A stretch of 36,327 nt of DNA from Promethearchaeota archaeon (GTDB taxonomy: Archaea; Asgardarchaeota; Lokiarchaeia; Sigyniarchaeales; SOKP01). Of this stretch, positions 6,213-25,495 are shown piece by piece. The notes beneath the pieces are model-generated. The model was not told where the DNA came from. It did not search any database and saw nothing but the letters and a program-made list of their open reading frames with translations. Numbering within the stretch: position 1 is the stretch's first letter; every line of letters starts with the position of its first letter. Location of the stretch: the NCBI GenBank assembly GCA_019058015.1, contig JAHLWH010000149.1:1-36327 (forward strand), read 5' to 3'. A program made the position numbers and the translations under genes.

Positions 6213-6326
6213 TCTTATCTTTAGATTTAATTAATGTTAAAAAAATTAATTTATTTTGACAATAGTAAATAAAATTCATATATACGCGATTGCTCAAAAT
6301 TATTTTAATCATTATGAAATCAATTT

Positions 6327-7967: not shown

Positions 7968-9380
7968 TTATAAATTTTTAAGTTTTTCTTCATGCAATTT
8001 TGTCAATTTTATTCGATTTTCTGCTAATTTTTTTCCTTTGATGGGATAGAAATATAATCCAATGACACCGATCAATAGAACAATGCATGGAAAAATACCT
8101 ATTAGAAATTGAAGACCTGCTATTACATCAGCTCCTGGGTTCGGTATGTAAGTTGACCATTCAGTGCCAGAAAAAACCAAGCCAATTACTGAAAAATTAA
8201 TGACCGCCGATATCCGTATAAGGAAATTGATGATTCCATAGTAAATACCAGCTCGTCGTGTTCCATGCTTGATTTCATCTTCATCAATGATCTCCGCAAG
8301 ACATTGGTCATAGAAATAAATAGTTCCGCCCAATCCGATACCGGTGAATATCATCACAATGAGACCCACAACATAATCTGGTGTGAACATGTAAATCAAC
8401 ATACCAAATCCCCAAATTATCATTCCTAGCATTCCAACTATGCGAGCGCCTTTTTTTTTACGCAATTTTTCCCAAAAAGGTATAGTAAAAAAAGCTGTTA
8501 TAAAAGCCGCAAGCAAAACTAATCCTATTAGTTCTGAATCTACAACTTTATGTACATATGTCTCAAATAGAGGAATTAATGTAGGTAATAGATTAACACA
8601 GATCCAATAAGTAAGTCCAGGGATGAGAAATACTAGAAATGACTTATTTTTAAATGTAAATTTCATTGTGTTTATAAAAGACGGTGCGGTTTCAGCATCT
8701 TTTACAAATATTTTAGGTTCTCGAAGACCCCATTTCACTGCGATGAAAAGAAACACAATAACTATAATTGCAATAATGATTCCTGTAAGTTGATATTGAC
8801 CTAGTGTATAAGGATAACCAAATTGATTAGTAATATCTTCAATAATAAATGTAGGCATAATAAAAGCAAAAATTAATGAAATAAGTACAAACATTACACG
8901 GGTTCGACCTACTTCACTCCTTTCTTTCACAGAAACGAACATTTCCGAAAAAATTGCATTATAATTTAAATTAAATGCCGTGTAGACCGTGTCAAATATA
9001 ATAAGTATAATCAATAAATAAATAAGATTGACTACATCGGAGTTAGCATAGATGGGGGGTGTAAAAAGTAAAAACATTATAATCGCTAGTGGAATAATAG
9101 CACCGACCATCCATGGAGTTCTGCGTCCCCACTTAGTTCGTGTCCGATCAGAAAGATAACCAATAAGCGGATCATTAATACTATTCCATATACTCCAAAA
9201 GATAAAAGTTAGACTAATCCATAGAATTGGTAATCTAATCACAGTAAAATAGAAAAGAAAGATCAAAAATGAAAAGCTCTGGTAGGCAACATTATCTCCT
9301 ACTTCAGCAAGAGAGTAAGCCAATTTCATACGAGAATCTTTTCGAGATTTCATTTCGTTCTTAGAGTTCATTTCGTTCAT
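7968..9380 (-). CDS. MFS transporter, glycoside-pentoside-hexuronide (GPH/MelB-like) family
   Basis: WNSINDPLIGYLSDRTRTKWGRRTPW and EIIDEDE...G.RRAG.Y.G motifs; about 12 TM. Confidence 0.92.
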   Translation of the reverse strand: MNEMNSKNEMKSRKDSRMKLAYSLAEVGDNVAYQSFSFLIFLFYFTVIRLPILWISLTFIFWSIWNSINDPLIGYLSDRTRTKWGRRTPWMVGAIIPLAIIMFLLFTPPIYANSDVVNLIYLLIILIIFDTVYTAFNLNYNAIFSEMFVSVKERSEVGRTRVMFVLISLIFAFIMPTFIIEDITNQFGYPYTLGQYQLTGIIIAIIVIVFLFIAVKWGLREPKIFVKDAETAPSFINTMKFTFKNKSFLVFLIPGLTYWICVNLLPTLIPLFETYVHKVVDSELIGLVLLAAFITAFFTIPFWEKLRKKKGARIVGMLGMIIWGFGMLIYMFTPDYVVGLIVMIFTGIGLGGTIYFYDQCLAEIIDEDEIKHGTRRAGIYYGIINFLIRISAVINFSVIGLVFSGTEWSTYIPNPGADVIAGLQFLIGIFPCIVLLIGVIGLYFYPIKGKKLAENRIKLTKLHEEKLKNL

Positions 9381-9539: not shown

Positions 9540-10130
9540 TTAAGTAATTTTTTTCTCTTTTAAGAATAATGCTAGAATGGATATAATAATGAGCAATATG
9601 GATTGTATTATCAAAGCAGGAAAATAATCACCGTTGGGCATTTTCAAACCTTCGAAACCGAGGATAAAAATAACTCCTCCTATTTGTCCAAACATCATTA
9701 AAAATCCGTTTGAACTTGCTTCTGAAACGGGGCTTGCAATATCTATAGCGTATTCTAAAGCAACTGGTGCAACGGAGATTAAACCGAATCCAAAAAGAAA
9801 ACCGAAGAGATATAATAAATTTTCATCATATGCAAATGAAATAATGAATAGAGAAATTGTTGCAATTACACACGATAAAATTATTAGAATTTCTCGTTTT
9901 TTGAATTTATCTGATAAAATAGACATTACTAAACATCCAATGATGCCACCTATTAAAATTATACTTCTAAATATACCTGCAAATATGGCATCATAACCTC
10001 TAGGTACAACAATTTGTTCTATATATTTAGTTATGGTATTAAAGACGCCAAGTCCAATGAGAAAAACGATAACTAATACTAGAAATTTTTTATTTGTAAA
10101 TAGTTTTTTGAGACCTGTAAACATAAACAC
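9540..10130 (-). pseudogene. C-terminal half (6 TM) of an MFS transporter; N-terminal half missing
   Basis: Begins in the central-loop sequence (EEKVFMFTGLKKLFTNKKF) and contains the second-half motif ILSDKFKKR. Only about 180 bp separate it from the uppS stop, so there is no room for TM1-6. Confidence 0.7.
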
Positions 10131-10312: not shown

Positions 10313-11050
10313 CTATTTTCCCCTTCGCCGGGCTCTTCTTAGATATTCTCTAATATCTTCAACCAACATTTCTTCATTATAATCAGGCCAATAATCGTCA
10401 CGAAATTTAAACTCAGCATATGAAGCATCCCACAATAAAAATCCTGAAATTCTTGCCCCATCTTCCATCCCTGTCCGGATAATGTAATCCAATTCGGGAA
10501 AATCTTTAGTATATAGATAATTTTTAATTAATTCAATATTTATATCCTTTGGGTTTATTTTATCATCTAAAATTTTTTTCACGGCATCGACAATTTCTTC
10601 TTGACCATCATACATTATACATATATTCAAAAATTTTTTGTCATGGTCTTTTGTTGTTTCAATAAGTTCATTAATTTTTTCCCTCACATCAGGTGGCAAT
10701 AGTGATAATCTCCCGATTACATTAATTTTAACTTTTTCTTCTTTTATAACCGGATCGTTGCTGATAACATCAATTACATTAATAATCAAACCATAAATAT
10801 ACTGAAGTTCTTGGGGACTTCTTTTTTTAACATTTTCATTTGATAAAGCAAACACACTCAAGTATTTAATACCCAGATCTAAGAAGCTAAATAATATTTT
10901 CCTTAAGGTTTCATACCCTGCTAAGTGTCCTAAATTGAGATTAAGATTTCTTTTTTTTGCCCATCGGCGATTTCCATCGAGAATAAGTCCAACATGTCTA
11001 GGTAATTTGTCCTTTGCTTCTTTTTTCAATTCTTCCAAGTTATTGACCAC
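10313..11050 (-). CDS. uppS: cis-prenyltransferase (undecaprenyl/polyprenyl diphosphate synthase)
   Basis: HVGLILDGNRRWA, FALS.EN..KR, YDGQEEI, DYIIRTG....RISGFLLW..SYAE, WP and a C-terminal RRGK. Confidence 0.95.
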   Translation of the reverse strand: MVNNLEELKKEAKDKLPRHVGLILDGNRRWAKKRNLNLNLGHLAGYETLRKILFSFLDLGIKYLSVFALSNENVKKRSPQELQYIYGLIINVIDVISNDPVIKEEKVKINVIGRLSLLPPDVREKINELIETTKDHDKKFLNICIMYDGQEEIVDAVKKILDDKINPKDINIELIKNYLYTKDFPELDYIIRTGMEDGARISGFLLWDASYAEFKFRDDYWPDYNEEMLVEDIREYLRRARRRGK

Positions 11051-11325: not shown

Positions 11326-12960
11326 ATGAAAAGTGATAAACACTTATTCAGTAATATCGGAATAGACTCAATTGGATTCTATGCGCCAAGATTTTACTTG
11401 AGTTTAAATGATCTTGCAATTATACGAAATGTTGATCCAAATAAATATAAAAAGGGATTACTTACAAAAGAGATGAGATTTCCTGAAGTAGGTGAAGATA
11501 TTGTATCTATGGGTATAAAAGCCGGTTATAATGCATTACTTAGGGGTCACATCAATCCAAAAAAAATAGATGCAATATTTGTTGGAACTGAGACAATAAC
11601 TTATGCAGTTAAATCAGTTTCAAACATACTCGCCCAATTATTAGGCATTTCTATAAATTCTTTAACACAAGATGTGTATAATGCATGTGCTGCTGGCACA
11701 CTAGCAATTCTTAATGCAATTGCTTTAATTGAAAAAGATATAATTAAAAAAGCATTAGTAATTGGAGTCGATGTGTCTTCCTATAGTTTAGGTAGTCCAG
11801 GAGAGCCCACACAAGGAGCTGGTGCAATTGCTTTAGTTTTATCAAAAAATCCACGAATTGCAACCTTTAGTAAGAAATTTGGAAAAATTTCAGGAAATAT
11901 TAATGATTTTTATAGACCTGCAAATGAATCTGTACCTCAAGTATTTGGACGATATTCCATTGATTCTTATCTTAATTTTCAATTAGGAGCATTTGATGAT
12001 TTAACTAGGAATATTGGAGATTTTTACGCAGATTATTATGTATTTCATGCTCCATATAGTAAACTAGCTTTAAAATGCATGCAGAATATAATCGTTAAGC
12101 GTTGGGTTAAGGATATAAGTAAAATTTTTAAAATTGAACCGCATCATGTAAGATCTTCAATTATTAAAAAAATAAATGACTTTATGCAAAATATAAGTTT
12201 CATTCCGGAATTTATAGGTGTAAAATTAAAAGATAAAGGATTGAAATTAACTCAACTAGACATCATGAAAAATTGGGTACTTACAAATATAAAAAATAGA
12301 GTAATTCCACAATTGAAAGTCCCTATGCATTTCGGTAATATGTATTCAGCTTCAGTTTGGGCTCAAATATTGTATATCCTAGAAACTTCTGCTCGTGTGG
12401 ATAATACAATTTATTTTGGTTCTTATGGTTCTGGGGCAACTTGTATCTCAGGTTTATTAAAAGTTCAGCCAAGATTTAAGCGTGTTGTTAAAAGAAAACC
12501 ACAAGTTGTTGATTTTCTTAAAATAAAAGAACGAAAAAGTGTTCAAGAATACGAACAGATAAAACAAGGTCTTTTAACACCACATATTAGCTTAGGACAT
12601 ATAGAGGAATACAAAAAAAATAAGGCAAAAGGTTTTACTCTGCATTTTTGTGATGAAGGATGTATAATTCCACAAATTGAGGGATTGAATTATTGTCCTA
12701 AAGGACATTCTGGTTTTTATGCGAAGTTTTTCCCATTATTTGCTGTATTAATTTCTGAGCCAATCGATACAAATGGAAATGACCTTAGCTTCCTAAAAAA
12801 AGATCTAGTAAGAATCCAAGGCTATCCAAAAATAGGAAATCTTTTAGAATGTGAGATACGCCGTGTTGAAAGTACGTTTGAAGATCAATCATTAAGTAGT
12901 GGATTGTTAAACTGGACACCCACTTATATTCCCTTAATAAATAGAGATCAATTTTTTTAG
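11326..12960 (+). CDS. mvaS: HMG-CoA synthase (MvaS-like) with an internal insertion and a C-terminal DUF35-like Zn-ribbon/OB-fold extension
   Basis: GIDSIGFY.P, EDIVSM, GTET, NACAAGT (catalytic Cys), GEPTQGAGA, DFYRP, FHAPY, GNMYSAS and GSYGSGA. The C-terminus carries CDEGC...CPKGH and KIGNLLECEIRRV...GLLNWTPTYIP. Confidence 0.92.
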   Translation: MKSDKHLFSNIGIDSIGFYAPRFYLSLNDLAIIRNVDPNKYKKGLLTKEMRFPEVGEDIVSMGIKAGYNALLRGHINPKKIDAIFVGTETITYAVKSVSNILAQLLGISINSLTQDVYNACAAGTLAILNAIALIEKDIIKKALVIGVDVSSYSLGSPGEPTQGAGAIALVLSKNPRIATFSKKFGKISGNINDFYRPANESVPQVFGRYSIDSYLNFQLGAFDDLTRNIGDFYADYYVFHAPYSKLALKCMQNIIVKRWVKDISKIFKIEPHHVRSSIIKKINDFMQNISFIPEFIGVKLKDKGLKLTQLDIMKNWVLTNIKNRVIPQLKVPMHFGNMYSASVWAQILYILETSARVDNTIYFGSYGSGATCISGLLKVQPRFKRVVKRKPQVVDFLKIKERKSVQEYEQIKQGLLTPHISLGHIEEYKKNKAKGFTLHFCDEGCIIPQIEGLNYCPKGHSGFYAKFFPLFAVLISEPIDTNGNDLSFLKKDLVRIQGYPKIGNLLECEIRRVESTFEDQSLSSGLLNWTPTYIPLINRDQFF

Positions 12961-13020
12961 AGTTCCCTTTCAGTCTCTTTCCCAATAAACCCGTCTATTG
13001 ATGTTTGAGATTTTTCCATT

Positions 13021-14232
13021 ATGATTCAATTTAAAAATCTTCCCAAGTCTTTTGGGAATCAATTAAGGAAGGACCATAATGATATTTTAAATTATTTAAT
13101 TAAAGAGGATTATAATATCCAATCTCTCCCTACAAACAGAAAAGCAATATCTAAAGAGGGAGAAGCATATACACTGGCATATCCTATTCAAGGAGTACTT
13201 AAATATCATGGGTTGGTAAGTAAAAAACACCGAATCTCTTATTTTCCCAGTGTTTCTTTTAATAATAATGTAGGTTTTACAGTCACTTATTTAAAATTTG
13301 ATAAGCAATTAAAAGAAGATACAGTAATTTTAAATGGAGAAAAATTATCAAACGATAATTTAAAGAAAATTACAATTTCTTTAGATCTAATTAGAGAATA
13401 TTCAAAAATTAAGTTAAAAGCTTTATTAATTTCAGGTAATTTTTTAAATTCTTCGCATAAATTGTTAACTGGTAAAGGATTAGGAACATCTGCTTCTGGT
13501 TCTGCAGCTCTTGCTTTAGCTGCAATTTCGATATTATATAACAATGAATCAGAATATATTGAAAATAATCGATTAATCAGCTTATTTTCTAGATATTTAG
13601 CTGGATCTGGAACACGTAGTGCCGCAGGTGGATTCGCACTATGGTTGAGTCATCCTACAATAGATCCATTTGACTCTTTTGCAATCCGCCTTGATAGAGA
13701 AGAACACAAAAAATTTGTTAATAACATTTCTCTTATAACTATTCCAATCAATTCCGATTTAAAAACCGAACAGGTTCATAAGATTGCCCCAAAATCGCCC
13801 TTTTTTCCTTCTTGGTTAAAAGAACGGAAAAAAAAGGTTTTTGATTTCTTTATAGCATTAGATAATTGTGATTTGAATAAAATTGGAGAAATAGCGGAAT
13901 ATGATACAATGTGTCTGCATTCAATAACAATGACCTCACAACAAAAGCAAAATATTATTGCTTGGAAGCCAGATACTCTATCAATTATTCTTCGAGTTCG
14001 AGAACTGCGTGCATCTGGTTATAATGTATATTTTTCAATTGATACGGGTCCTTCAGTGGTATTATTAACATATAAAAATGAAAAAAATAGTATAATTAAT
14101 AATTTAAAAGAATTAAATCCGAATTTGGACATTATTGAAGGAAAAATTGGAGGAGCAAGCAAGTTAATTCGTGCTAATTCTCCCAATGCTCAACTGCTAA
14201 AAGAAGACATAAATAAATTTAATATTTCTTAA
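13021..14232 (+). CDS. mvaD: GHMP-family decarboxylase, most likely phosphomevalonate decarboxylase (haloarchaeal/Chloroflexi type)
   Basis: AYPIQGVLKYHG...RI.Y.PS.S in place of the NIALIKYWGK of diphosphomevalonate decarboxylase. GLGTSASG P-loop, RYLAGSGTRS and catalytic SIDTGPSV are intact. About 45-aa N-terminal extension. Confidence 0.82.
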   Translation: MIQFKNLPKSFGNQLRKDHNDILNYLIKEDYNIQSLPTNRKAISKEGEAYTLAYPIQGVLKYHGLVSKKHRISYFPSVSFNNNVGFTVTYLKFDKQLKEDTVILNGEKLSNDNLKKITISLDLIREYSKIKLKALLISGNFLNSSHKLLTGKGLGTSASGSAALALAAISILYNNESEYIENNRLISLFSRYLAGSGTRSAAGGFALWLSHPTIDPFDSFAIRLDREEHKKFVNNISLITIPINSDLKTEQVHKIAPKSPFFPSWLKERKKKVFDFFIALDNCDLNKIGEIAEYDTMCLHSITMTSQQKQNIIAWKPDTLSIILRVRELRASGYNVYFSIDTGPSVVLLTYKNEKNSIINNLKELNPNLDIIEGKIGGASKLIRANSPNAQLLKEDINKFNIS

Positions 14233-14249
14233 ATAATATATGTAAAATA

Positions 14250-15530
14250 ATGAATGATATCAACTCTAGTATTCCTGGATTTTATAAATTATCAATTGAT
14301 GAACGCCAACAAGTAATAACTAAACTTGTTAATCTTAATACAGAAGAACTCAAGTTGTTAAAAAATTATGGATATATTTCTCCTTTTCAACTAGATACAT
14401 TAATAGAAAATGTTATAGGAAGTTACCATTTACCAATGGGTATTGCATGCAATTTTAAAATTAATAATAAAGATTATTTAATACCAATGGTAATTGAAGA
14501 GCCTTCTGTCGTAGCTGCGGCTTCAAATGCTGCAAAAATTGCTAGAAAAAATGGTGGATTCTATTCTGAAAAAATTAAATCAATAATGTTTTCTCAGATA
14601 CAAGTTACGAATATAAAAAATATGAATATTGCTAAAGAAAATATTGAGAAAAATAAGGATAAAATTTTAAAAATTGCGAATGAACAAGATCCAATTTTAA
14701 CAAGTTTAAAAGGGGGGGCATTTGATCTTGAAATTCATGAAATCTCAACAAAAAAAGGCCCTATGCTGATTGTCCATTTATTAGTAGATGTTTTAGATGC
14801 AATGGGAGCCAATGTAGTAAATACCATGGCAGAAGCTGTAGCACCTTATATTGAAGAAATTTGTGAGGGACAAGTTTTTCTTAGAATTGTATCTAATTTA
14901 GCCATACATCGTCTTGCAAGGTGTAGAGCTGTTTTTGATAAAGAGCTATTAGGTGGAGATAAGGTGGTTGAGGGTATAATAAATGCCTATGAATTTGCAC
15001 TCGCTGATCCTTTCAGAGCAACAACGCATAATAAAGGTATAATGAACGGAATTGTAGCTTTAACAATGGCTACAGGAAATGACACACGCGCTATAGAAGC
15101 TGGGGCTCATGCATTTGCAGCATTAAGTGGAAATTATTCTCCATTGACAAAATTTCAAGTTGATTCAGATGGAAACTTAGCTGGAGAAATAGAGATACCT
15201 CTTGCTCTTGGCATTATAGGGGGTATGACTAAAATACATCCGATGGCGCGATTAGCGTTAAAGATTTTGGATATTAAAAGTGCTAATGAGCTTTCTCAAG
15301 TAGCCGCTGCTGTCGGTTTGGCTCAAAATGTAGCTGCACTAAGGGCTTTAGCTTCAGAGGGAATCCAAAAAGGACATATGTCCCTACATTCGAGAAATAT
15401 TGCAAAATTGGCGGGTGTACCTGAAGAATTAATAGAAAAGGTTGCAAAAAAATTAGTAGAAGATAAAAAAATTAGAGTTGATCATGCTAAAGAAATTTTT
15501 AAAAAAATAATTGATGGTGAAAACCTTTAG
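14250..15530 (+). CDS. mvaA: HMG-CoA reductase, class II
   Basis: ENVIG, PMVIEEPSVVAA, DAMGAN, THNKGIMNG, GNDTRA and GIQKGHMSLH. Confidence 0.95.
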   Translation: MNDINSSIPGFYKLSIDERQQVITKLVNLNTEELKLLKNYGYISPFQLDTLIENVIGSYHLPMGIACNFKINNKDYLIPMVIEEPSVVAAASNAAKIARKNGGFYSEKIKSIMFSQIQVTNIKNMNIAKENIEKNKDKILKIANEQDPILTSLKGGAFDLEIHEISTKKGPMLIVHLLVDVLDAMGANVVNTMAEAVAPYIEEICEGQVFLRIVSNLAIHRLARCRAVFDKELLGGDKVVEGIINAYEFALADPFRATTHNKGIMNGIVALTMATGNDTRAIEAGAHAFAALSGNYSPLTKFQVDSDGNLAGEIEIPLALGIIGGMTKIHPMARLALKILDIKSANELSQVAAAVGLAQNVAALRALASEGIQKGHMSLHSRNIAKLAGVPEELIEKVAKKLVEDKKIRVDHAKEIFKKIIDGENL

Positions 15531-15618
15531 TTTTTTAAAATTTGTTCATGTAAGTTTTCTTTAAAAAAAAACAATAATGTAGATGAATTGTATTATTAAA
15601 AATAAGTCTTTGAGATGA

Positions 15619-16929
15619 TTGAAACTTATGGGATTTAGAGAATATATAAATCAAATTTATGAGAAAGGTCTTCTTCGAAAGGTAGATATTGAAGTATCAA
15701 AAAAATTAGAGATTTCTGGAATTTTAAAAGAAATTGAACCAACCCCAGTAATGTTTAATAATGTTAAAGAATCGGAATTTCGCGTGGTTGGTAATATATT
15801 TTGTACCAAGAATGTAATTGCTTCATATTTCGGCGTGACTCCGGTAGATCTCATACCAATGCTTTCAAAAGCAATTTCTGAACGTTCGGAACCAGAGATT
15901 GTTTCAAACGCTCCTTGTCAAGAAGAAATTGAATCGAACGTTGATTTAGATAAACTTCCGATTTTATTCCATTGTGAAAAAGATGGTGGGAATTATATCA
16001 GTTCTGCTGTTGTTATTACTAGAGATCCAGATTATGGACAAAATATGGATTTTCATCGAGCAATGCAATTTTCTAAAGAAAAATTTGCCACTCGAATAGT
16101 TAGAGGTCGTCATTTTCATAAATTTTTGGAAAAAAACAGTGAATTAGATGTAGCATTTTGTATTGGAAATACTCCTAACATTCTAATTGCTGGAGCAACT
16201 TCTGTAGATATTGGAGTTGATGAATTACAAATAGCAAATGCATTAGAACCCATTAGAGTTGTTAAAGCAAATTCAGTAGATCTTTTAATTCCTGTAGAAA
16301 CAGAATTTGTTTTAGAAGGTCGCGTTTATATGGAAGAAAGACACTCTGAAGGGCCATTTATTGATTTAACAGAAACCTATGACGTGATTAGAGAAGAACC
16401 TGTTTTTGAAGTCAAAAAAATCACTCATAGAAAGAAAGCAATTTGGCAAACTTTATTACCGGGAGCACTTGAGCATAAAATATTAATGGGAATGCCCCGA
16501 GAACCAACTATTTTCAAAAAAATAAATGAAGCAGCAGTTAAATGCTTGGATGTAAATATTAATCCTGGTGGATGTTCCTGGTTACATGCAATTATCCAAA
16601 TTGATAAAAAAACAGAAGATGATGGCAAAATAGCAATAGAAGAAGCTTTTGCTGGTCATAAAAGCTGTAAACACGTTTTCATTGTTGATATGGATATTAA
16701 TATTTATAACCCGTTATCTGTAGAATGGGCAATGGCAACTCGCTTTCAAGGGGATACGAGAATGATCATAAAAGATAAAGAACCAGGAAGTAGTTTAGAT
16801 CCTAGTGCCGAACCGGGTACAAAAATGACTACAAAAATTGGTTTCGATTTGACAAAACCACTTGTAGCTAAAGGAAAGAGTTATAATAAAGCAGATTTCC
16901 CTAAAGTAGACATAAATAAATATTTTTAA
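15619..16929 (+). CDS. UbiD-family prFMN decarboxylase, putative anhydromevalonate phosphate decarboxylase
   Basis: DLDKLPI, DGG.YI, FHR, EFVLEG, EGPFIDLTETYD, VEWAMATRFQ, GSSLDPS and KIGFD.T. It lies directly upstream of the AcnX pair and mevalonate kinase. The true start may be the ATG at 15628. Confidence 0.88.
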   Translation: MKLMGFREYINQIYEKGLLRKVDIEVSKKLEISGILKEIEPTPVMFNNVKESEFRVVGNIFCTKNVIASYFGVTPVDLIPMLSKAISERSEPEIVSNAPCQEEIESNVDLDKLPILFHCEKDGGNYISSAVVITRDPDYGQNMDFHRAMQFSKEKFATRIVRGRHFHKFLEKNSELDVAFCIGNTPNILIAGATSVDIGVDELQIANALEPIRVVKANSVDLLIPVETEFVLEGRVYMEERHSEGPFIDLTETYDVIREEPVFEVKKITHRKKAIWQTLLPGALEHKILMGMPREPTIFKKINEAAVKCLDVNINPGGCSWLHAIIQIDKKTEDDGKIAIEEAFAGHKSCKHVFIVDMDINIYNPLSVEWAMATRFQGDTRMIIKDKEPGSSLDPSAEPGTKMTTKIGFDLTKPLVAKGKSYNKADFPKVDINKYF

Positions 16930-16942
16930 GATATAGGAGTCG

Positions 16943-18142
16943 ATGAGATTGAAATTAACATCAGAAGAAAAAGATATGTTGGATGGCAAGCAAGGAAGAT
17001 CAACTCAAAAATCCATGGAGATATTAACCACATTAGGTGAGATATTTGATGCAGAATGTATGATTGAGGTTTATAGCGTGCAAATAGCAGGAGTTTCTTA
17101 TGCAAATTTAGGAGAAGCAGGTCTAGAATTTTTGAGTGAGATGGCAGAAGATGGAAAGGTTAGGGTTTTAACAACTTTAAATCCAGCTGGAATGGACCGA
17201 GAAAATTGGCAAGCTTTAGGAATTGAAAAAGAATTTGCAGTTAATCAAAACCGTGCTATAGATACCTTTGCAAAAATGGGAATAATTACAACATGTTCTT
17301 GTACACCATATTTAATAGGAAACGCCCCACATTTTGGTCAGCATATTGCTTGGGCCGAGAGTAGTGCTGTTTGCTATTCAAATTCTGTTATTGGTGCTCG
17401 AACAAATCGTGAAGGTGGTCCGAGTGCACTAGCTGCTGCTTTAACTGGAAAAACACCAAAATATGGCTATCATCTAGATAAAAATCGTCATGGACAGGTT
17501 TTAATTGAAGTTAAGGTTCCAGTGAAAGGTACAGATGAATTTGGCGTGTTAGGAAAAATAATTGGGGATAAATTGGTTGAATTAGGAAAGAAAATACCTT
17601 ATATTACTGGAATTTCTTCAGCAACAGTTGAGGAACTTAAATCATTCTGCGCTTCAGTGGCTACTTATGGAGGTACAGCATTATTTCATATGGAAGGCAT
17701 AACCCCAGAATATAATATGTATCCTAAGCCAAGAGATAATATTTTTGAAATTAATCAGGATAACCTTAATAAAACTCGTTCTGAACTTATTGATGATGAT
17801 ATTGAAATTGATTTCGTTAGTATCGGGTGTCCTCACGCTTCAATTCACGAAATAGCAACAATTGCAAGTTTATTGAAGGGAGAGAAAGTTAAAAAAGAAT
17901 TTTGGATTACTACTGCTCGACCTACAAAAAGAATCGCTGATGAAGCTGGCTATTCTAAAATAATTGAAGATGCTGGAGCAAAATTCGCAGCAGATACTTG
18001 CTGTGTTGTAGCTCCAATTAAAGGGCGTTTCAAGGGAATCATGGTAGATTCAGCAAAAGCGTGTTATTATGGCCGCGCTAAGAATAAATTTAAAGTAAAA
18101 ATTGGAACGATTGAAGAATGTGTTAAGGAGGCGACAATATGA
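16943..18142 (+). CDS. Aconitase X catalytic subunit, putative phosphomevalonate dehydratase large subunit ([4Fe-4S])
   Basis: QIAGVSY, TTLNP, SCTPY, WAESSAV, GARTNREGG, IGCPH, DTCC and DSAK, so the Cys ligands are present. Confidence 0.9.
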   Translation: MRLKLTSEEKDMLDGKQGRSTQKSMEILTTLGEIFDAECMIEVYSVQIAGVSYANLGEAGLEFLSEMAEDGKVRVLTTLNPAGMDRENWQALGIEKEFAVNQNRAIDTFAKMGIITTCSCTPYLIGNAPHFGQHIAWAESSAVCYSNSVIGARTNREGGPSALAAALTGKTPKYGYHLDKNRHGQVLIEVKVPVKGTDEFGVLGKIIGDKLVELGKKIPYITGISSATVEELKSFCASVATYGGTALFHMEGITPEYNMYPKPRDNIFEINQDNLNKTRSELIDDDIEIDFVSIGCPHASIHEIATIASLLKGEKVKKEFWITTARPTKRIADEAGYSKIIEDAGAKFAADTCCVVAPIKGRFKGIMVDSAKACYYGRAKNKFKVKIGTIEECVKEATI

Positions 18143-18528
18143 AGTTAGAGGGGAGAAAGATTTATAAGGGAATAGCAGAAGCAGAAGCGATTGTAACAAA
18201 AGATGGAATTTCATTTTATGGAGGCGTTGACCCTGATACAGGTAAGGTGGTTGAAGTTGGACATGAATTAGAGGGTCAATCAATAACTGGAAAAGTGTTA
18301 GTTTTTCCTACCGGAAAAGGTTCAACAGTAGGTTCCTATACGATGTATCGGATGAAGAAAAAGAATACAGCTCCAGCTGCAATAGTAAATGAACAAATCG
18401 ACACGATAATAGCAGTGGGTTGTATAATTAGTGAAATTCCTTGTGTGGACAAAATTGATATTAATAATATTAAAACTGGACAAAAAATCATTGTTAATGG
18501 TTCAGAAGGAACTGTAGAGATAAAATAA
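18139..18528 (+). CDS. Aconitase X swivel-domain subunit (DUF126), putative phosphomevalonate dehydratase small subunit
   Basis: ISFYGGVDP.TG, GKVLVFP.GKGSTVGSY and IP.VD. ATGA overlap with the large subunit suggests translational coupling. Confidence 0.9.
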   Translation: MKLEGRKIYKGIAEAEAIVTKDGISFYGGVDPDTGKVVEVGHELEGQSITGKVLVFPTGKGSTVGSYTMYRMKKKNTAPAAIVNEQIDTIIAVGCIISEIPCVDKIDINNIKTGQKIIVNGSEGTVEIK

Positions 18529-18543
18529 AATGGGGTAAAACTA

Positions 18544-19479
18544 ATGGGATTTGGTAAAGGTTATGGAAAAACAATTTTATTTGGCGAACATTTTGTTTTA
18601 TATGGGTTTTTAGCAATCGCATCAGCATTAGGTTCTTCTACGACTGCTAATGTTAAAATTATCGAAGGTAAAGGATGGGTTGTTGATGATCAGAGACTTG
18701 AAACGCCAGGTTATAAAATAAAGAAATTTGATGAAGCACAACAATCCATTAAAAATGTATTAGAGTATCTAAAAATAGATACAGATAGTCAAAAACTTGA
18801 AATAACTTTTGCTGGAGATCTAATTGCTGCGAGTGGAGTTGGTGCTTCAGCGGCTCAATGTACATCATTAGCTCGGGCTTTAAACGACAGCTTTAATCTA
18901 AATTTAGATGATGAAAAGATAAATGAAGCTGCGTATGAAGGAGAGAAAGCTTATCACGGAACCCCATCTGGTATTGACAATACCGCCTCAACTTATGGAG
19001 GATTGATTTGGTTTGTGAAAAATTTGAATGGTGGGAAAAATACTATGGACCTCTTGCAATCACCAATAAAAATACCATTATTAATCGCTAATTCAGGAAT
19101 AACTGCTTCTACGATAGAAGTAGTTGCTGATGTTCGGCGTTTGAAAGATAAAAATCCTAATAAATTTGAGAAAATTTTTAAGGAATATAAAGAAATAGCA
19201 GATAAAGCAAAAATGGCCTTACTTGAAGGAAATATTATTTCTATAGGTAATTTAATGAATCAAAACCACAAATTACTCCAAGAAATTACGGTTTCAGGAG
19301 AAGTTAATGATAAATTAGTTCAAATAGCGTTAAAAAATGGAGCGATTGGTGCTAAAATGACAGGAACCGGGCGTGGTGGTTTAGTAATTGCTTTAGCTGA
19401 AAATAAAGAAATACAAGAAAAAATAGCCAAGGCAATCGAAAAAGAGGGTTATGATGCCTGGAAAACCATAATTGGATGA
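18544..19479 (+). CDS. mvk: Mevalonate kinase
   Basis: GKTILFGEHFVLYG, SGVGASAA, HGTPSGIDN and GAKMTGTGRGG. Confidence 0.94.
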   Translation: MGFGKGYGKTILFGEHFVLYGFLAIASALGSSTTANVKIIEGKGWVVDDQRLETPGYKIKKFDEAQQSIKNVLEYLKIDTDSQKLEITFAGDLIAASGVGASAAQCTSLARALNDSFNLNLDDEKINEAAYEGEKAYHGTPSGIDNTASTYGGLIWFVKNLNGGKNTMDLLQSPIKIPLLIANSGITASTIEVVADVRRLKDKNPNKFEKIFKEYKEIADKAKMALLEGNIISIGNLMNQNHKLLQEITVSGEVNDKLVQIALKNGAIGAKMTGTGRGGLVIALAENKEIQEKIAKAIEKEGYDAWKTIIG

Positions 19480-19491
19480 GATTGATTTAAA

Positions 19492-20301
19492 TTGAATAAC
19501 AATAATGAAATTTATCTATTGAAGTTAGGTGGAAGTTTATTAACTGATAAAAATAAGCCCTTTTCTATTAGAAAAAATGTTGTTAAAAGCGCAGTTCAAC
19601 AAATTATAGATGCTAATGAAAAATTAATATTAATTCATGGAGGGGGTTCGTTTGGCCATCCTCTTGCAAAAAAATATAGTCTTTCAAATGGTATAAATGC
19701 ATCTATTCCAAATCAAATTCTTGGACTTACTGAAACACACCAATCAATGAACAAATTCAATTCCTATCTAATTAATCAATTTTTAGAAAAAAAATATCCT
19801 GCATTATCAATTCAAGCTTCCAGTATTTTCATCAAAGATTCTCAAAATATCTCAACTCAATCGATTAATGTTATTGAAACTGCCTTAGATCTTGATATTT
19901 TACCTATTTTGTATGGAGATATAATCCTTGATTCAAAGGGGTCATTCTCAATTATTTCTGGAGACCAAATCATCGTGGAATTATGTAAGAAAATTAAAAA
20001 TTATAATATCTCTAAGGTTATTTTCGCTATTGAAAAAGATGGATTATTTATCAAAGAAAGAGAGAATGACAAATTGAATATAAAACTAGCGACAGAATTA
20101 AAATTCGAAGATTTAGATAAAATTGAAATTGCTGATTTAGAAAGTAAAATCGATGTAACAGGCGGAATTAAAGGTAAAATTAATAAAATCAAACAAATTT
20201 GCCAACAAAATATTCCCGTTCAAATAATAAATGGTTTAAAAGATGAATTTATACTTAAAGCATTAAAAAATCAAAATATAATTTCAACCAAAATAAAATG
20301 A
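19492..20301 (+). CDS. ipk: Isopentenyl phosphate kinase
   Basis: KLGGSLLTDK, IHGGGSFGHP (IPK His), YGD, ISGD and DVTGGI.GK. Confidence 0.93.
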   Translation: MNNNNEIYLLKLGGSLLTDKNKPFSIRKNVVKSAVQQIIDANEKLILIHGGGSFGHPLAKKYSLSNGINASIPNQILGLTETHQSMNKFNSYLINQFLEKKYPALSIQASSIFIKDSQNISTQSINVIETALDLDILPILYGDIILDSKGSFSIISGDQIIVELCKKIKNYNISKVIFAIEKDGLFIKERENDKLNIKLATELKFEDLDKIEIADLESKIDVTGGIKGKINKIKQICQQNIPVQIINGLKDEFILKALKNQNIISTKIK

Positions 20302-20311
20302 GCACAGAATT

Positions 20312-21394
20312 ATGAATGAAAATGATATAAATAAGAGAAAACTGGATCATCTAAAAATCCCAATTGAATTTGATGTTCAACATTCTGAAAATTATTTCAA
20401 ATATATTAAATTGATTCATCATTCTCTCCCAGAGGTAAATTTTGAAGATATTGATTTAACTACAAAATTTTTTAATAAACAAATATCGGCACCCATATGT
20501 ATTGCAGCTATAACTGGTGGGCATGAAATTTCTAAAGAAATCAATAGGATTCTTGCTACAGCCGCAGAATCAGAGAAGATTATTATGGGGGTCGGGAGTC
20601 AACGCGCTGGATTAGAAGATCTATCAAAGGAGAACTCATTTAAAGTGGTTCGAGAAGTTGCGCCTAATATTCCACTGATTGGAAATATTGGTATTGGTCA
20701 AATAAGTGAGAAAAATTTCAATATTGAAAATTTTAATAAATGCATTGATATGATTAAAGCTGACGTAATGGCAATACATTTCAATGCATTGCATGAATTA
20801 GTTCAGGATAAGGGTAATATTTCATATAGTTTATTCCGTTCAAATTTTCAAAAAATAAGAGAAAAAATTAAGATTCCAATAATAGCAAAAGAAGTTGGAA
20901 CAGGAATCAGTCAGGAAATGGGTTTAATTCTTGAAAACCTTGGATTTGATGGTTTTGATGTAGGTGGATTTGGTGGAACAAGTTTTGCTGCAATTGAATC
21001 TAAGCGAAAAAATTTTATTAATGAAAAATATTCACGTGACCCAGCAGAGCTTTTCAAGGATTGGGGAATACCTACTCCAGTAAGTGTAATTAATATAAGG
21101 AAAGTTTCAAACAAAATTATTATTGCGACTGGTGGGTTGAGAACCGGAGCTGATGTTGCTAAATCCATTGCAATAGGTGCAGATATTGGAGGATTTGCTT
21201 ATAATTTACTCTTAACTGCATGGAAAGATTACCAAAATAAAACAAATATTAATACTATAAATGAAATAAAAACAATAAAACGAGAATTACGTTCTTGTTT
21301 ATGGTTGATGAATTTAAAGAATATAAATGAATTAAAAAATAATATAAATAAAAGAATTATTCTTGGTAAATTACATGAATGGTTAAATCAATGA
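20312..21394 (+). CDS. fni: Type 2 isopentenyl-diphosphate delta-isomerase (FMN-dependent)
   Basis: RK.DH, AITGG, MGVGSQR, H.N...E..Q, KEVG.G, GGTSFA..E, WGIPT and ATGGLRTG. Confidence 0.95.
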   Translation: MNENDINKRKLDHLKIPIEFDVQHSENYFKYIKLIHHSLPEVNFEDIDLTTKFFNKQISAPICIAAITGGHEISKEINRILATAAESEKIIMGVGSQRAGLEDLSKENSFKVVREVAPNIPLIGNIGIGQISEKNFNIENFNKCIDMIKADVMAIHFNALHELVQDKGNISYSLFRSNFQKIREKIKIPIIAKEVGTGISQEMGLILENLGFDGFDVGGFGGTSFAAIESKRKNFINEKYSRDPAELFKDWGIPTPVSVINIRKVSNKIIIATGGLRTGADVAKSIAIGADIGGFAYNLLLTAWKDYQNKTNINTINEIKTIKRELRSCLWLMNLKNINELKNNINKRIILGKLHEWLNQ

Positions 21395-21400
21395 TTCTGT

Positions 21401-22468
21401 TTAGAACTTCCGCTCAATAACATATTTTAATAAATTTTCAAAAAACTCTGCTTCAGACTGATTAATAACAGGAATTAACTCGTTAAGCTGAATCCTAGCA
21501 ATTTTAGCATAATCATTCACTAGGTTCTTACAAGAAAAAACAACCTCAGCTTCAAGGAATAGATCCTTTACTTCTTGAACTTCCTCGTCTTTTATATTAG
21601 GATTTCCAATTAAATCAATGATCCTTTTTCTTTTATTTGAATCTAATTTTTCAAAAGCATCTATTAACAAGCAAGTCTTCTTACCTTCCCTTATATCTCC
21701 ATTTGTGGGTTTTCCAGTAATTTTTTCATCTCCAAAAGTTCCTAATATATCATCGATCATTTGAAAGATAATTCCAAGATTAATAGCATATTTCGAAATA
21801 TTTTGAAGATATTTATCCTCAACTCTAGCATAATTTGCACCAATCAACATAGATTTTTCAATTAATGCACCGGTTTTTAATGAGATCATTTCGATATAAT
21901 CTTGCATTTTTAGGAATTCTTGATTAACCATATCCAATTCGATTAACACACCATCACATATTTCTTGAAAGACCCTTTCATAATACTTAATTGCTCTAAT
22001 ATTTTGGTCGAGATCAAAACCATTATTAAAAAATGCTTCCAATCCAAAAAAGAAAGCAGAATCCCCGCCTAAAATACCTATTGAATTACCAAAATCTTCT
22101 TTATTCATCTTTTTTAAATTAAATCTGGAATGATACTGCTTGAATCTATAATGAAATGCAGGATTATTGCGCCTAAAATCATCCTTATCTATTATATCAT
22201 CGTGAATTAATGAAGCATTATGGAGAAATTCAACTCCCACACTGGGAAAGACTATTTTATCATCTCTTTCAGAGCTAAAAGCATTATATGTGGCTATACA
22301 AACCAATGGTCTTAATCTTTTACCCCCAACCAAAAAATAATCCATTAATTCATTATAATATTCCCTTAAAAAAGGATTTTGGACTTCATTTAATTTGTTT
22401 TCGTATATTTTTTTAATTGAATTGTTTATTTTGGGTTTATATAAATTCAGATATTCAGGAACTTTCAT
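21401..22468 (-). CDS. trans-prenyltransferase (GGPP / polyprenyl diphosphate synthase)
   Basis: GGKRLRP, FARM HDDIIDKDDFRR, KTG, SARM FQMIDDILG and DIREGKKT. Convergent with fni across a 6-bp gap. Confidence 0.93.
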   Translation of the reverse strand: MKVPEYLNLYKPKINNSIKKIYENKLNEVQNPFLREYYNELMDYFLVGGKRLRPLVCIATYNAFSSERDDKIVFPSVGVEFLHNASLIHDDIIDKDDFRRNNPAFHYRFKQYHSRFNLKKMNKEDFGNSIGILGGDSAFFFGLEAFFNNGFDLDQNIRAIKYYERVFQEICDGVLIELDMVNQEFLKMQDYIEMISLKTGALIEKSMLIGANYARVEDKYLQNISKYAINLGIIFQMIDDILGTFGDEKITGKPTNGDIREGKKTCLLIDAFEKLDSNKRKRIIDLIGNPNIKDEEVQEVKDLFLEAEVVFSCKNLVNDYAKIARIQLNELIPVINQSEAEFFENLLKYVIERKF

Positions 22469-22669: not shown

Positions 22670-23875
22670 TTAGATTTTTATTAATTCATATTCGATATTA
22701 CCGATTCTATCTTTAACTGCAGCGTCTAATTGCCAAGAAACATTTACCATATTATTTAATGCATTAAATTTTTCGATTCCAGGGGCAGTAGGTTTTGTCC
22801 ATTGCCCATTTTCATTTAAGATTGGAATTCCAGGGGCATTAGTTTCTGCGTCAACACAAGCTTTATCTATTGCAAGAGGGTCAGCTGATCCGAAAATACC
22901 AAGATCAGGCACAATAGGAACACTCGGATTAACTACGCAATCACACATGAGAGTAATTTCTAAAGCAAAATTAATACAACGAATATTTTCTTTACCAAAG
23001 GATGTTAAGACAGCCTTAGCATTATCAATTACACGGCCACAGAATATATCGAAATTAGCAAATGCTGCACTTTTTATTGCTTTTCTCACTGGACATTTTT
23101 CTTTACAACCAAAACAACCAATACAAGTAGAAGGATCGATAACTGCAATTTTATTTATTATCTTTATTGCCCCTACCGGACAGGCTTGAACACATTCTTG
23201 ATTGCATTTTGATATATCGCATTTCTTGGGATTAACTTTTAGATCGCCATCAAAATGAGCTCGAAACTTATTTCGCTTAGTGATACAACCAATTCCAAGG
23301 TTTTTCAAGGCACCTCCAAAACCTGCCTGGGGATGTCCCTTAAAATGCGAGACAATAACAAGTTTATCAAAATCAAAAAGCCCTGCAGCAACAGATACAT
23401 CTTTCAAGTGAATACCATCTATTTCAATAATTTTTCCATCAATTCCATTTTCCCCATCAATAAATTTTAGCGGAGCGCCAATTAAAGACTCATTATATCC
23501 ATGAAGATACGCAGTTTTATTATGTTCAGTTGCAGTTTTTCTGCATCCAAGACAAATTGAGTAATTTTCAGAAATATTTAAGTGCTTGACGTTCATTCCA
23601 TTACCTTGGGTCTCTATAAGTGTAGGAATACCTCCTTTTGATTTAATAAAATCAACAACCTCATGTACATAATCATGACGCAAATAGCGTGTATTATAGG
23701 CTTCTCCAACATGAACTTTTACTCCAACTTTATCTCCAGAATCGATGTTATCCAATATTTTGTCTAAAATTAGGCGTGTTTTTACTAGATTATTTGTTAC
23801 CATATTTTCAGCGGTGTTTTTTATTGCAGCGACTTCATATGGGGGAGCCCAATATACTATTGATTCTTTCGACAT
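22670..23875 (-). CDS. DUF362-domain Fe-S protein with an inserted 2x[4Fe-4S] ferredoxin-like domain
   Basis: VKVHVGE, SHFKGH...GFGGALKNL.IGC, CDC and DP.AIDKA..D. Ferredoxin motifs C....C...C...CP and CIGCFGCKEKCP. Confidence 0.88.
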   Translation of the reverse strand: MSKESIVYWAPPYEVAAIKNTAENMVTNNLVKTRLILDKILDNIDSGDKVGVKVHVGEAYNTRYLRHDYVHEVVDFIKSKGGIPTLIETQGNGMNVKHLNISENYSICLGCRKTATEHNKTAYLHGYNESLIGAPLKFIDGENGIDGKIIEIDGIHLKDVSVAAGLFDFDKLVIVSHFKGHPQAGFGGALKNLGIGCITKRNKFRAHFDGDLKVNPKKCDISKCNQECVQACPVGAIKIINKIAVIDPSTCIGCFGCKEKCPVRKAIKSAAFANFDIFCGRVIDNAKAVLTSFGKENIRCINFALEITLMCDCVVNPSVPIVPDLGIFGSADPLAIDKACVDAETNAPGIPILNENGQWTKPTAPGIEKFNALNNMVNVSWQLDAAVKDRIGNIEYELIKI

Positions 23876-24697: not shown

Positions 24698-25495
24698 ATG
24701 AAAAATTTTAAAAAAATGATTTTAACGGCTACAACAGCCAATTCCTGGATTTATCCAGATGTAAAGAATTGGGCTCAAACAACCGATGATTTAATAGAAT
24801 CAATTGTAAAATGTTATGAAGTAGGGGCTTCTATAGCTCATGTTCATCTCCCGAGAGGGGAAGAGGTTGATACTGTTAAAAAAATTAGGGAAAGATGTGA
24901 TATTATAATTCAAGCTGGAATGTCGAGTTATCCAATAGAAGAAAGAGAGGCTGATTTTCAAGCAAAACCCGATATGCTTTCGATAATATTAAATCATCAT
25001 GATGAGTATTTCACGCAAATAAGAGTTAATCAACTCCATACTATTGAGGAATTAGAAAAATATTGCGTGAAATGTAAGGAGTTCAACATAAAACCAGAGT
25101 GGGAAGTATGGCATACTGGGTCTTATTGGAATTTGAATTATCTAATTAATAAAAACTTATTAGAAACACCTCATGTATTAACCTTGTTTTTTAATTGGCC
25201 TGGAGGGACATGGTCTCCTTCGACTGCTGATGAGTATTTGCATAGGATAAAATATATGCCTCAAAATTGTTTACACACAATAAGTGTTATGGGAGAGAAC
25301 CAGATAAAAATTGCAACTCTAGCCATAGCACATGGTGGAAATGTACGAGTAGGAACTGAAGATTATCCTTTTATTAAGAAGGGGATTCCTGCAAAAGATA
25401 ACGCCGAACTTGTAGCTCGAATGGTAAGAATATGTAAAGAAATGGGACGAGAAATTGCAGATCCATCGGAAGCACGGAAAATTTTAGGGGTCTAA
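24698..25495 (+). CDS. Beta-keto acid cleavage enzyme (BKACE / 3-keto-5-aminohexanoate cleavage family, DUF849)
   Basis: GASIAHVH (Zn-binding HxH), KPE.E, GGNVRVGTED, NAELVAR and GREIA.P.EAR..LG. Confidence 0.9.
   Translation: MKNFKKMILTATTANSWIYPDVKNWAQTTDDLIESIVKCYEVGASIAHVHLPRGEEVDTVKKIRERCDIIIQAGMSSYPIEEREADFQAKPDMLSIILNHHDEYFTQIRVNQLHTIEELEKYCVKCKEFNIKPEWEVWHTGSYWNLNYLINKNLLETPHVLTLFFNWPGGTWSPSTADEYLHRIKYMPQNCLHTISVMGENQIKIATLAIAHGGNVRVGTEDYPFIKKGIPAKDNAELVARMVRICKEMGREIADPSEARKILGV

Follow-up and report, generated by a model that had tools for sequence, protein, structure and literature searches.

Variants of the mevalonate (MVA) pathway are commonly depicted as alternatives, one taking the place of another in the course of archaeal and eukaryotic evolution. 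In the window analysed here, the 36,327-nucleotide contig JAHLWH010000149.1 of a Promethearchaeota archaeon (assembly GCA_019058015.1; Lokiarchaeia), two such variants stand side by side. Nine co-oriented genes on the + strand (11326–21394) include a long-form GHMP decarboxylase of 403 residues (hereafter DEC), which is probably an ATP-dependent phosphomevalonate decarboxylase (PMD), together with the AcnX and UbiD genes of a candidate archaeal route from mevalonate 5-phosphate (MVA-5-P) to isopentenyl phosphate (IP). A sequence-only reading of the window had pointed to both routes between 13021 and 20301. This observation stands, both routes being apparently intact, and the cluster reaches beyond that span on both sides.

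Among described systems, the haloarchaea-type PMD (NF040704; A. thermophila 6N0X) shares with DEC the GHMP decarboxylase fold, the DxGP Asp, the P-loop, the SxN and KYHG motifs and the His, and its gene likewise adjoins those for mevalonate kinase (MVK) and isopentenyl phosphate kinase (IPK), with no phosphomevalonate kinase (PMK). In contrast to this enzyme, DEC is about 75 residues longer, with a helix at the N-terminus and extra residues ahead of the P-loop, is 28–30% identical to 6n0x in Foldseek, belongs to a clade separate from the short PMD and diphosphomevalonate decarboxylase (DMD) proteins (support 100), and coexists with an AcnX/UbiD route. With the bisphosphomevalonate decarboxylase (MBD) PtoMBD (7T71; NF040847), DEC has in common the long form, the alpha-1 helix, local motifs, the His of column 253 and the absence of a lysine at column 245. 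However, it keeps S138, N140, T156 and S159 where MBD has R/K and Glu, and no mevalonate-3-kinase (M3K) was found in the five genomes searched. DEC differs from DMD in its motif, KYHGL as opposed to KYWGK, and in the lack of a PMK over the cut-off. Finally, the Aeropyrum pernix pathway, which uses a phosphomevalonate dehydratase (PMDh) and an anhydromevalonate phosphate decarboxylase (AMPD), resembles the locus in its split AcnX with three Cys positions, the UbiD next to it, the MVK and IPK of the operon, and a UbiX gene located elsewhere in the genome. The window operon differs in containing a GHMP decarboxylase and, for the upper pathway, a long HMG-CoA synthase (HMGS) and a class-II HMG-CoA reductase (HMGR).

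For Asgard archaea, the main text of PMC11052028 (Microorganisms 2024;12:707) describes PMD homologues in Lokiarchaeia that have higher identity to MBD and are called PMD by context, and it places them as sister to the Thermoplasmatales MBD. [quoted passage not shown]

With moderate confidence, we read the window's operon as a complete archaeal lower pathway with a probable PMD in parallel, DEC being a long-lived branch that is now dispensable in the window's family (f1). MVK would convert mevalonate to MVA-5-P, which the AcnX Fe-S dehydratase would turn into trans-anhydromevalonate-5-phosphate and the UbiD decarboxylase, dependent on prenylated flavin mononucleotide (prFMN), into IP; IPK would then yield isopentenyl diphosphate (IPP). 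The long-form GHMP decarboxylase would take MVA-5-P to IP in a single ATP-dependent step (PMD activity), the two branches sharing their start and end metabolites. DEC would long have been passed down vertically within the HMGS-DEC-HMGR section of the cluster, and it would be the sole route in sister families lacking AcnX, UbiD and UbiX. Within f1, it would act as a less constrained parallel branch that some lineages retain and most have lost.

The cluster and its two candidate routes

The window is contig C146 of G000, a MAG of 3.84 Mb and about 30% GC that is 94% complete in 283 contigs. In the open reading frame list, the nine genes of the cluster are separated by gaps of 60, 17, 88, 13, −4, 15, 12 and 10 bp, in order, and we infer that they are co-transcribed. 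The widest gap, an 88-bp A/T-rich spacer (15531–15618), may form a boundary between two transcription units; it shows small indels at 15560–15585 in the metagenome contigs of runs X3, X5 and X8. All genes named in the sequence-only reading were recovered in place on the + strand by open reading frames, Pfam and NCBIfam. The motifs it had quoted for the decarboxylase (P0001; 13021–14232; MVD-like_N, 3e-23) are also present in the translation, with AYPIQGVLKYHG at residues 53–64, the P-loop GKGLGTSASGSAA at 151–163 and DTGP at 341–344.

The AcnX/UbiD branch begins with the UbiD-family decarboxylase (15619–16929), which matches all three UbiD domains (N, core and C; 2.5e-56 for the core) and scores 358.8 bits on TIGR00148 against a cut-off of 244.85. 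It is followed by the AcnX large subunit, the candidate phosphomevalonate dehydratase (16943–18142; PF04412, 7.1e-148), and by the AcnX small (swivel) subunit (18139–18528; PF01989, 3.1e-36; NF003046, 179.6 bits vs 163), which overlaps the large-subunit gene by 4 bp. Downstream lie MVK (18544–19479; TIGR00549, 226 bits vs 163) and IPK (19492–20301; NF040647, 213.1 bits vs 120). The closest solved relative of the large subunit is 7cnr/7cns from T. kodakarensis (339 bits), compared to 209 bits for the type-I hydroxyproline dehydratase. Its Cys residues at 118/120, 296 and 353/354 lie near the Fe-S ligands C122, C297 and C356 given for ApPMDh in PMC10040528, the match being one of position number and not of direct alignment. 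The gene pair therewith combines the split subunits, the three Cys positions and the greater similarity to the archaeal enzyme, as opposed to type I, that mark type IIb AcnX. A second AcnX large/small pair is present in G000 (C239:7130–8744, − strand), sharing 33% and 30% identity with the pair in the operon, and many relatives have this second paralogue type, with scores of about 370 bits.

The window's UbiD is the only one in G000, and UbiD stands beside AcnX in every cluster examined. G000 also encodes UbiX, outside the operon (TIGR00421, 216.7 bits vs 108.9). G000 and G007 have all three of UbiX, UbiD and AcnX, and the closed genomes G054 and G105 lack the whole set, with no UbiD found and no UbiX match over the cut-off. 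Because the three genes come and go together, we tie the window UbiD to the AcnX route. The UbiD fold, the supply of UbiX and the coupling to AcnX expected of an AMPD are all in place, and trans-anhydromevalonate-5-phosphate is the presumed substrate, no AMPD-specific curated model being among the matches.

Identity of the decarboxylase

Conserved residues and the gene content of related genomes suggest that the 403-residue protein is probably an ATP-dependent PMD. For columns conserved to at least 80% among 90 short PMD/DMD-like rows, the states in 9 MBD-clade rows and in 24 rows of the window's clade were compared. Across 35 long-form sequences, no variation is seen at D341, S157, R191 and H253 or in the DTGP motif, and conservation is at least 90% at S138, N140, T156 and R199; D341 corresponds to PtoMBD D309 in a hand mapping on the alignment. 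The protein has the catalytic Asp, the carboxylate-binding Arg, the P-loop and the SxN motif. The window clade keeps the short-form state where MBD differs at A53, Y62, T87, S138, N140, S159, L164, A279, G289, E293 and R330. At S138 and N140, MBD has R/I/M and R/K, respectively, and column 156 is Thr in 24/24 window-clade rows, Ser in the short forms and Glu in 9/9 MBD rows. We take S138, N140, T156 and S159, within the P-loop and SxN motifs, to form the ATP site, as in DMD structures. The loss of this site that characterises MBD, with a Glu in the P-loop and a replaced SxN, is not seen in the window clade.

Specificity for the monophosphate is likewise indicated. The clade carries KYHG[LMIF], as in the PMD-like rows, compared to KYWGK in DMD-like rows and KFLGY in MBD. 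In the window protein L65 follows KYHG, with no Lys as in the DMD motif, and His253, found in 24/24 clade rows, is of the PMD type where DMD has Met. A missing Lys after (Y/W)xG and a His equivalent to H194 of the A. thermophila PMD are the two marks of a monophosphate enzyme, and both positions were engineered in that PMD, as stated by the title of entry 6n0z (N20K H194M mutant). The predicted fold (pLDDT 94.5) has an N-terminal helix at residues 9–28, and its top Foldseek matches are the A. thermophila mevalonate 5-phosphate decarboxylase structures 6n0x/y/z (E ~1e-31, TM to target 0.89–0.93).

A search of 1.84 billion representatives returned 1434 matches at E up to 0.001. More than 100 close homologues (40–97% identity) are of Promethearchaeota/Asgard origin, among them proteins of the cultured Promethearchaeum (P0070) and of Lokiarchaeum ossiferum (P0090), the latter labelled 'Phosphomevalonate decarboxylase' by its source. 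Unrooted trees (137 rows, FastTree; 53 rows, IQ-TREE LG+C20) resolved three groups. The short-form clade (support 100) has basal rows that score best on the PMD model and a DMD-like crown; one of its rows, P0215, passes the PMD model at 603 bits and served as a control. A second group (98) comprises long-form proteins and ends in a long-branch MBD clade (99; branch length 1.32), whose members score 307–439 bits on the MBD model and include one protein from a Thermoplasma sp. and another, from Thermoplasmataceae, that bears the name MBD. The window's Asgard clade (core support 99) is the third group and lies between the other two. The evolutionary scheme of PMC9254496 (Discussion) implies a root in or beside the short-form group; if the root does lie there, the long-form proteins would be one lineage and MBD its derived offshoot.

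The gene content of sister families bears directly on function. Two closed genomes of family f2, G054 and G105, have DEC-HMGR-MVK-IPK clusters, G105 also with HMGS and the type-2 IPP isomerase (IDI2). Searches for AcnX in these two genomes gave only weak aconitase-like matches. No PMK passed the cut-off (NF040957, TIGR01220) in either, nor in the window genome, the positive controls of these searches being weak and TIGR01220 passing in none of its control genomes; a PF04275 search for PMK was uninformative, as its control matched nowhere. Apart from the decarboxylase itself, no member of the M3K family was found in G000, G007, G032, G054 or G105, mevalonate-3-phosphate 5-kinase (M3P5K) not having been searched for. 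A genome of family f5, G002, resembles them in AcnX, UbiX and PMK, the three of these genes that were searched for in it. In G054 and G105, the DEC orthologue is, judged by gene content, the only candidate for the step from MVA-5-P to IP. Since it is the sole candidate in genomes lacking AcnX, UbiD, UbiX and PMK, PMD activity is the parsimonious assignment. The context of the window gene, with MVK and IPK in the operon and no PMK over the cut-off, is that of a PMD, and our call from sole-candidate genomes agrees with the context-based call in the main text of PMC11052028. In a further decarboxylase-only f2 genome, G038, an AcnX-like fragment (L019 ~5841–6248; G038:C13:13840–14247) scores 39.9 bits, above the Pfam cut-off, and has five in-frame stops. 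This pseudogene-like fragment may be the remnant of a lost AcnX gene of either paralogue type.

Distribution, gene order and selection

We surveyed 151 evenly drawn genomes of the class, covering families f1, f2, f5 and f6, with two decarboxylase queries, the 403-residue type (DEC400) and an unrelated 339-residue type (DEC343). None of the 50 matches to the 403-residue protein contains an internal stop, and strong matches (E<=4e-89) occur in 39 genomes, namely 25 of f1 (including G000), 12/13 of f2 and 2/2 of f5. AcnX (E<=1e-85) is present in 104/127 f1 genomes, again including G000. No cluster-type AcnX was seen in f2, where the only strong match, in G135, has 31% identity to the window's AcnX, is located on a different contig and looks like the second paralogue type. 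DEC400 and AcnX coincide in 23/127 f1 genomes (23 of the 25 with DEC400) from 8 genera. In 19 of these 23 the two lie within 8 kb on one contig, the spacing fits the window order in 15, and the full order was verified in four.

The 339-residue decarboxylase was found in 20/126 f1 and 3/3 f6 genomes (23/151 in the class), together with AcnX in 19 and 3 of them, respectively. It passes the DMD model (246.9 vs 171 bits), has the Asn and His of the A. thermophila PMD, and follows the AcnX small subunit (AcnX-S) directly in 12 genomes, for example at L010:5419–6438 (G033) and L014 ~8360–9376 (G001). These genes are apparently what the main text of PMC11052028 calls 'DMD homologs of order CR-4'. The two decarboxylase types never occur in one genome. 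Among the ~104 AcnX-bearing f1 genomes, about 42 also have some PMD-like gene and 62 matched neither query, and DEC400 was not found in ~80% of the sampled f1 genomes. The 50 genomes of genus g2 divide into 9 with DEC400, 12 with DEC343 (one a fragment) and 29 with neither. Genomes in which both AcnX and a decarboxylase are missing were rejected as true absences: they are uninformative because HMGR was missing too in 4/5 checked, the cluster being unassembled. The G092 cluster, cut by a scaffold gap just after HMGR, was not counted as an absence either. Its HMGS-HMGR slot (L024:13348–14852; C1) contains a 183-residue UbiX-like gene (+) and a 307-residue alpha/beta-hydrolase-like gene (−), both named by reading their translations.

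Taken together, doubling of the MVA-5-P to IP step is common in the lineage, with 23 DEC400 and 19 DEC343 cases among 127 f1 genomes. The novelty of the co-occurrence is thereby largely removed, all the more as mosaic Asgard pathways are published, even if the present operon was not found described.

At least four gene orders exist. Form A, HMGS-DEC-HMGR-MVK-IPK-IDI2, is found in G105, G002 and G135 and partially in G054 and G038, and form B, the window's order, in G000, G007, G032, G043 and G013. In form B', represented by G053, DEC follows AcnX-S beside a duplicated 3' AcnX-S fragment, and in form C (G033, G001) the 339-residue gene follows AcnX-S. The G053 locus (L009:8050–8175; C9) has a 400-residue DEC between AcnX-S and MVK and a 42-residue fragment 71% identical to the AcnX-S C-terminus, which looks like the scar of a relocation by recombination. 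Two MVK types, about 35% identical to each other and both passing TIGR00549, exist in the class. The type of the decarboxylase-only clusters also occurs in 17 f1 genomes, and six of these have DEC400 and AcnX; as a strict rule, the replacement of a form-A MVK by a UbiD-AcnX-MVK block was therefore dropped.

At the family level, the phylogenies of DEC, HMGR and IPK for 11 genomes are in agreement, the G053 DEC grouping with that of G013. This agreement argues that DEC is old, vertically inherited, relocated and lost, and not recently imported. Within the genus, the DEC tree pairs G000 with G007, while the HMGR tree pairs G000 with G032 and G043, and synonymous divergence between G000 and G007 (L011) along the operon (13021–21394) ranges from 0.13 in DEC to 1.15 in AcnX-S. 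The discord between the trees and the uneven dS suggest recombination within the cluster. As the doubled state spans 8 genera, with decarboxylases 58–64% identical, we consider the doubling old, persistent and repeatedly lost. The sequence-only reading had offered a snapshot of pathway replacement as one explanation; replacement fits as a long-lasting polymorphism and not as a moment.

Among four genomes of the genus, DEC is the least conserved protein of the cluster (89–91% identity), compared to 94–99% for HMGR, UbiD, AcnX, MVK, IPK and IDI2 in the closest pairs. Its dN/dS (NG86, six pairs among the four genomes) is 0.29–0.40 in 6/6 pairs. The ratios are 0.01–0.05 for AcnX-S, 0.05–0.14 for the large subunit, 0.08–0.15 for HMGR, 0.08–0.33 for UbiD, 0.17–0.28 for MVK and 0.14–0.22 for IPK, all of these figures being rough, given a dS of 0.04–0.17, an A/T-rich genome and signs of recombination. 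DEC is under purifying selection, yet it is the most relaxed gene of the operon.

Why both routes are kept is a matter of inference, and the strongest competitor of the dispensable-branch reading is that the branches are non-redundant. DEC might act on a distinct substrate, serve as a regulated bypass or be used when iron, sulfur or flavin is limiting, as in the ATP-saving versus robustness trade-off proposed in the sequence-only reading. Both routes would then be preserved by selection in part of f1. The persistence of the doubling over genera with such diverged decarboxylases, the mutually exclusive presence of two unrelated PMD-like genes in archaeal-type clusters (23 and 19 of 127), a dN/dS below 0.4 and the activation of the homologue PtoMBD by geranylgeranyl diphosphate (GGPP; PMC9254496, Results) are all consistent with such a role. 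We nevertheless regard it as rather unlikely: 62 of the ~104 AcnX-bearing f1 genomes matched neither decarboxylase, DEC has the highest dN/dS of the cluster, all three states occur within genus g2, and PMD-only relatives are strict anaerobes according to the main text of PMC11052028. The oxygen part of the trade-off is unsupported for this last reason, the PMD-only route being the sole one in strict anaerobes including MK-D1. Nor is there a need for the proposal that the ATP-dependent route might bootstrap prFMN synthesis, as no decarboxylase was seen in most of the relatives that have AcnX/UbiD.

A bolder version, which we also consider unlikely, if a shade less so, is that the Asgard long-form decarboxylases are a distinct class ancestral to the Thermoplasmatales MBD and that part of f1 is under selection for two parallel routes. 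It draws on the separate fixation of the two PMD-like genes in about 40% of the AcnX-bearing f1 genomes and on the survival of the doubled state beyond the split of the genera. If true, the DEC branch would serve as a bypass that is regulated or tied to certain conditions, modulated for example by prenyl diphosphates or used under Fe-S or prFMN limitation, and would be more than mere redundancy. A non-redundant role gains in interest because two unrelated PMD-like genes were fixed in mutually exclusive fashion.

Competing readings, neighbouring genes and significance

The assignment of DEC as a PMD also has to be weighed against an MBD-like function. DEC could be an ATP-independent enzyme acting on mevalonate 3,5-bisphosphate supplied by an unrecognised 3-kinase, making the operon a hybrid with a Thermoplasma-like branch. 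A number of observations speak for this alternative or otherwise count against our assignment. The protein passes none of the curated models, scoring 170.9 bits (cut-off 560) on MBD NF040847, 149.1 (475) on PMD MvaD NF040704, 105.8 (171.35) on DMD TIGR01240 and 32.8 (440) on M3K. This failure weighs against a PMD, and the top NCBIfam match is the MBD model. Members of the window clade score almost equally on the MBD and PMD models (PMD 147–170 bits), and profile scoring was dropped as a means to decide between the two. In Foldseek, the longest alignment is that with 7t71 (PtoMBD), at 372 columns, compared to 338–351 for PMD. The model of the 403-residue protein has the MBD-like N-terminal alpha-1 helix, which is absent from known DMD and PMD structures (PMC9254496, Results), and the local motifs GSGTRSAAG and WLSxPxID are common to DEC and MBD, as is Ala/Ser at column 73. 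The loop lysine of column 245, present in 82% of short-form rows, is missing from the window clade, and only 16/24 clade rows have a basic residue at 248 that could stand in for it. As the basic residue of the beta9-alpha8 loop varies in the window clade and in those short rows that are most PMD-like, it was discarded as a kinase marker. The clade further has an insertion of 8–25 residues directly before the P-loop, and in the main text of PMC11052028 Lokiarchaeial homologues are nearer to MBD than to PMD in identity. The tree labels derive from NCBIfam scans of 11/90 short-form and 4/9 MBD-clade rows and from two source names, the weak PMK controls and rough dN/dS figures given above belong here as well, and no biochemical test of any Asgard PMD was found in the literature.

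Even so, we judge an MBD-like function improbable. SxN, the P-loop Thr/Ser and KYHG are kept where the MBD clade has basic residues, Glu and KFLGY; none of the five genomes searched (G000, G007, G032, G054, G105) has an M3K-family paralogue; MVK and IPK flank the decarboxylase; and in the maximum-likelihood tree the MBD clade is a long branch nested among other long-form proteins, outside the window's clade. The PMD assignment of the sequence-only reading is therefore plausible by residues and sole-candidate genomes, with the qualification that no curated model was passed and the best match is MBD.

A slightly poorer case can be made for DEC as a decaying, functionless relic wherever AcnX/UbiD is present. 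DEC is the least conserved protein of the cluster within the genus, has its highest dN/dS and is not found in most sampled f1 genomes. In contrast, its frame is intact in all 39 strong-match genomes, its catalytic residues are invariant, its dN/dS lies well below 1 in 6/6 pairs, and its retention goes back beyond the split of the genera.

That the juxtaposition is an assembly or binning chimera, a concern raised by the fragmented MAG (283 contigs) and by a back-joint (15512->13077) in the mapping of contigs, is practically out of the question, since the order is repeated in four other assemblies and public contigs from 3–4 separate studies bridge the join. The window's gene order, traced with tblastn using the window proteins, is identical in G007, G013, G032 and G043. 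Contigs of runs X3, X5, X6 and X8 (four studies) bridge the HMGS/DEC junction and those of X3, X5 and X6 the DEC/HMGR junction; none of the listed contig records from the same search bridges the HMGR/UbiD junction. The back-joint in contigs of X3, X5 and X6 was discarded as a chance effect, because it rests on 18-nt and 25-nt A/T-rich matches only.

Turning to the remaining genes, the cluster opens with HMGS (544 residues; 11326–12960; PF01154, PF08540), which scores 228 bits on TIGR01835, under the cut-off of 360. Its C-terminal extension of ~170 residues (375–544; window 12448–12960) has no Pfam match at E<=1 and is kept in relatives, with alignments extending to residue 534–540 in L008, L009 and L012–L014. 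The class-II (NAD-type) HMGR (14250–15530; PF00368, 1.9e-106; TIGR00532, 482.6 bits vs cut-off 260) follows DEC, and IDI2 (20312–21394; TIGR02151, 350.6 bits vs 281.3) closes the cluster; a second IDI2-like gene of G000, on C278, is 36% identical. A divergent cis-prenyltransferase gene of the UPPS family (10313–11050, −; PF01255, 9.6e-63) adjoins HMGS in all cluster forms examined, with 54–88% identity in L007–L009, L011–L017 and L020. Convergent with the operon lies a short-chain trans-prenyl diphosphate synthase gene of the GGPP-synthase type (21401–22468, −; PF00348, 1.8e-55), whose top NCBIfam match, GGPP_syn (186.8 bits), is under its cut-off. Next to it is a gene for a DUF362 protein with a 4Fe-4S dicluster domain (22670–23875, −), a neighbour kept in G032 and G043, and further along a beta-keto acid cleavage enzyme (BKACE) gene (24698–25495, +). 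MFS_2-type transporter genes or fragments surround the operon (7968–9380 and 9540–10130, −; 27463–28326 and 28440–29786, +), and by tblastn the 470-residue transporter has more than 15 paralogues genome-wide.

In the literature we found no explicit account of an operon combining a Lokiarchaeial PMD-like gene with AcnX/UbiD, the main text of PMC11052028 included, the figures and supplement of which may show one. This main text also contains nothing on the frequency, architectures or selection of the doubling. New here are the doubling frequency, the architectures, a case for kinase competence built on residues, the finding that UbiX, UbiD and AcnX are coupled, and the relaxation of selection seen in DEC. 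Because mosaic Asgard pathways were already published, the gain is one of detail and testability and not of surprise.

For the biology of the lineage, some 40 related genomes and the operon indicate that the Fe-S/prFMN route and a PMD-like decarboxylase have long coexisted in the archaeal lineage closest to eukaryotes. The DEC clade, as the apparent source of the Thermoplasmatales MBD, offers a natural system for studying the displacement of one route by another. An assay of this clade would anchor the evolutionary scheme that leads from PMD to MBD and from PMD to DMD.

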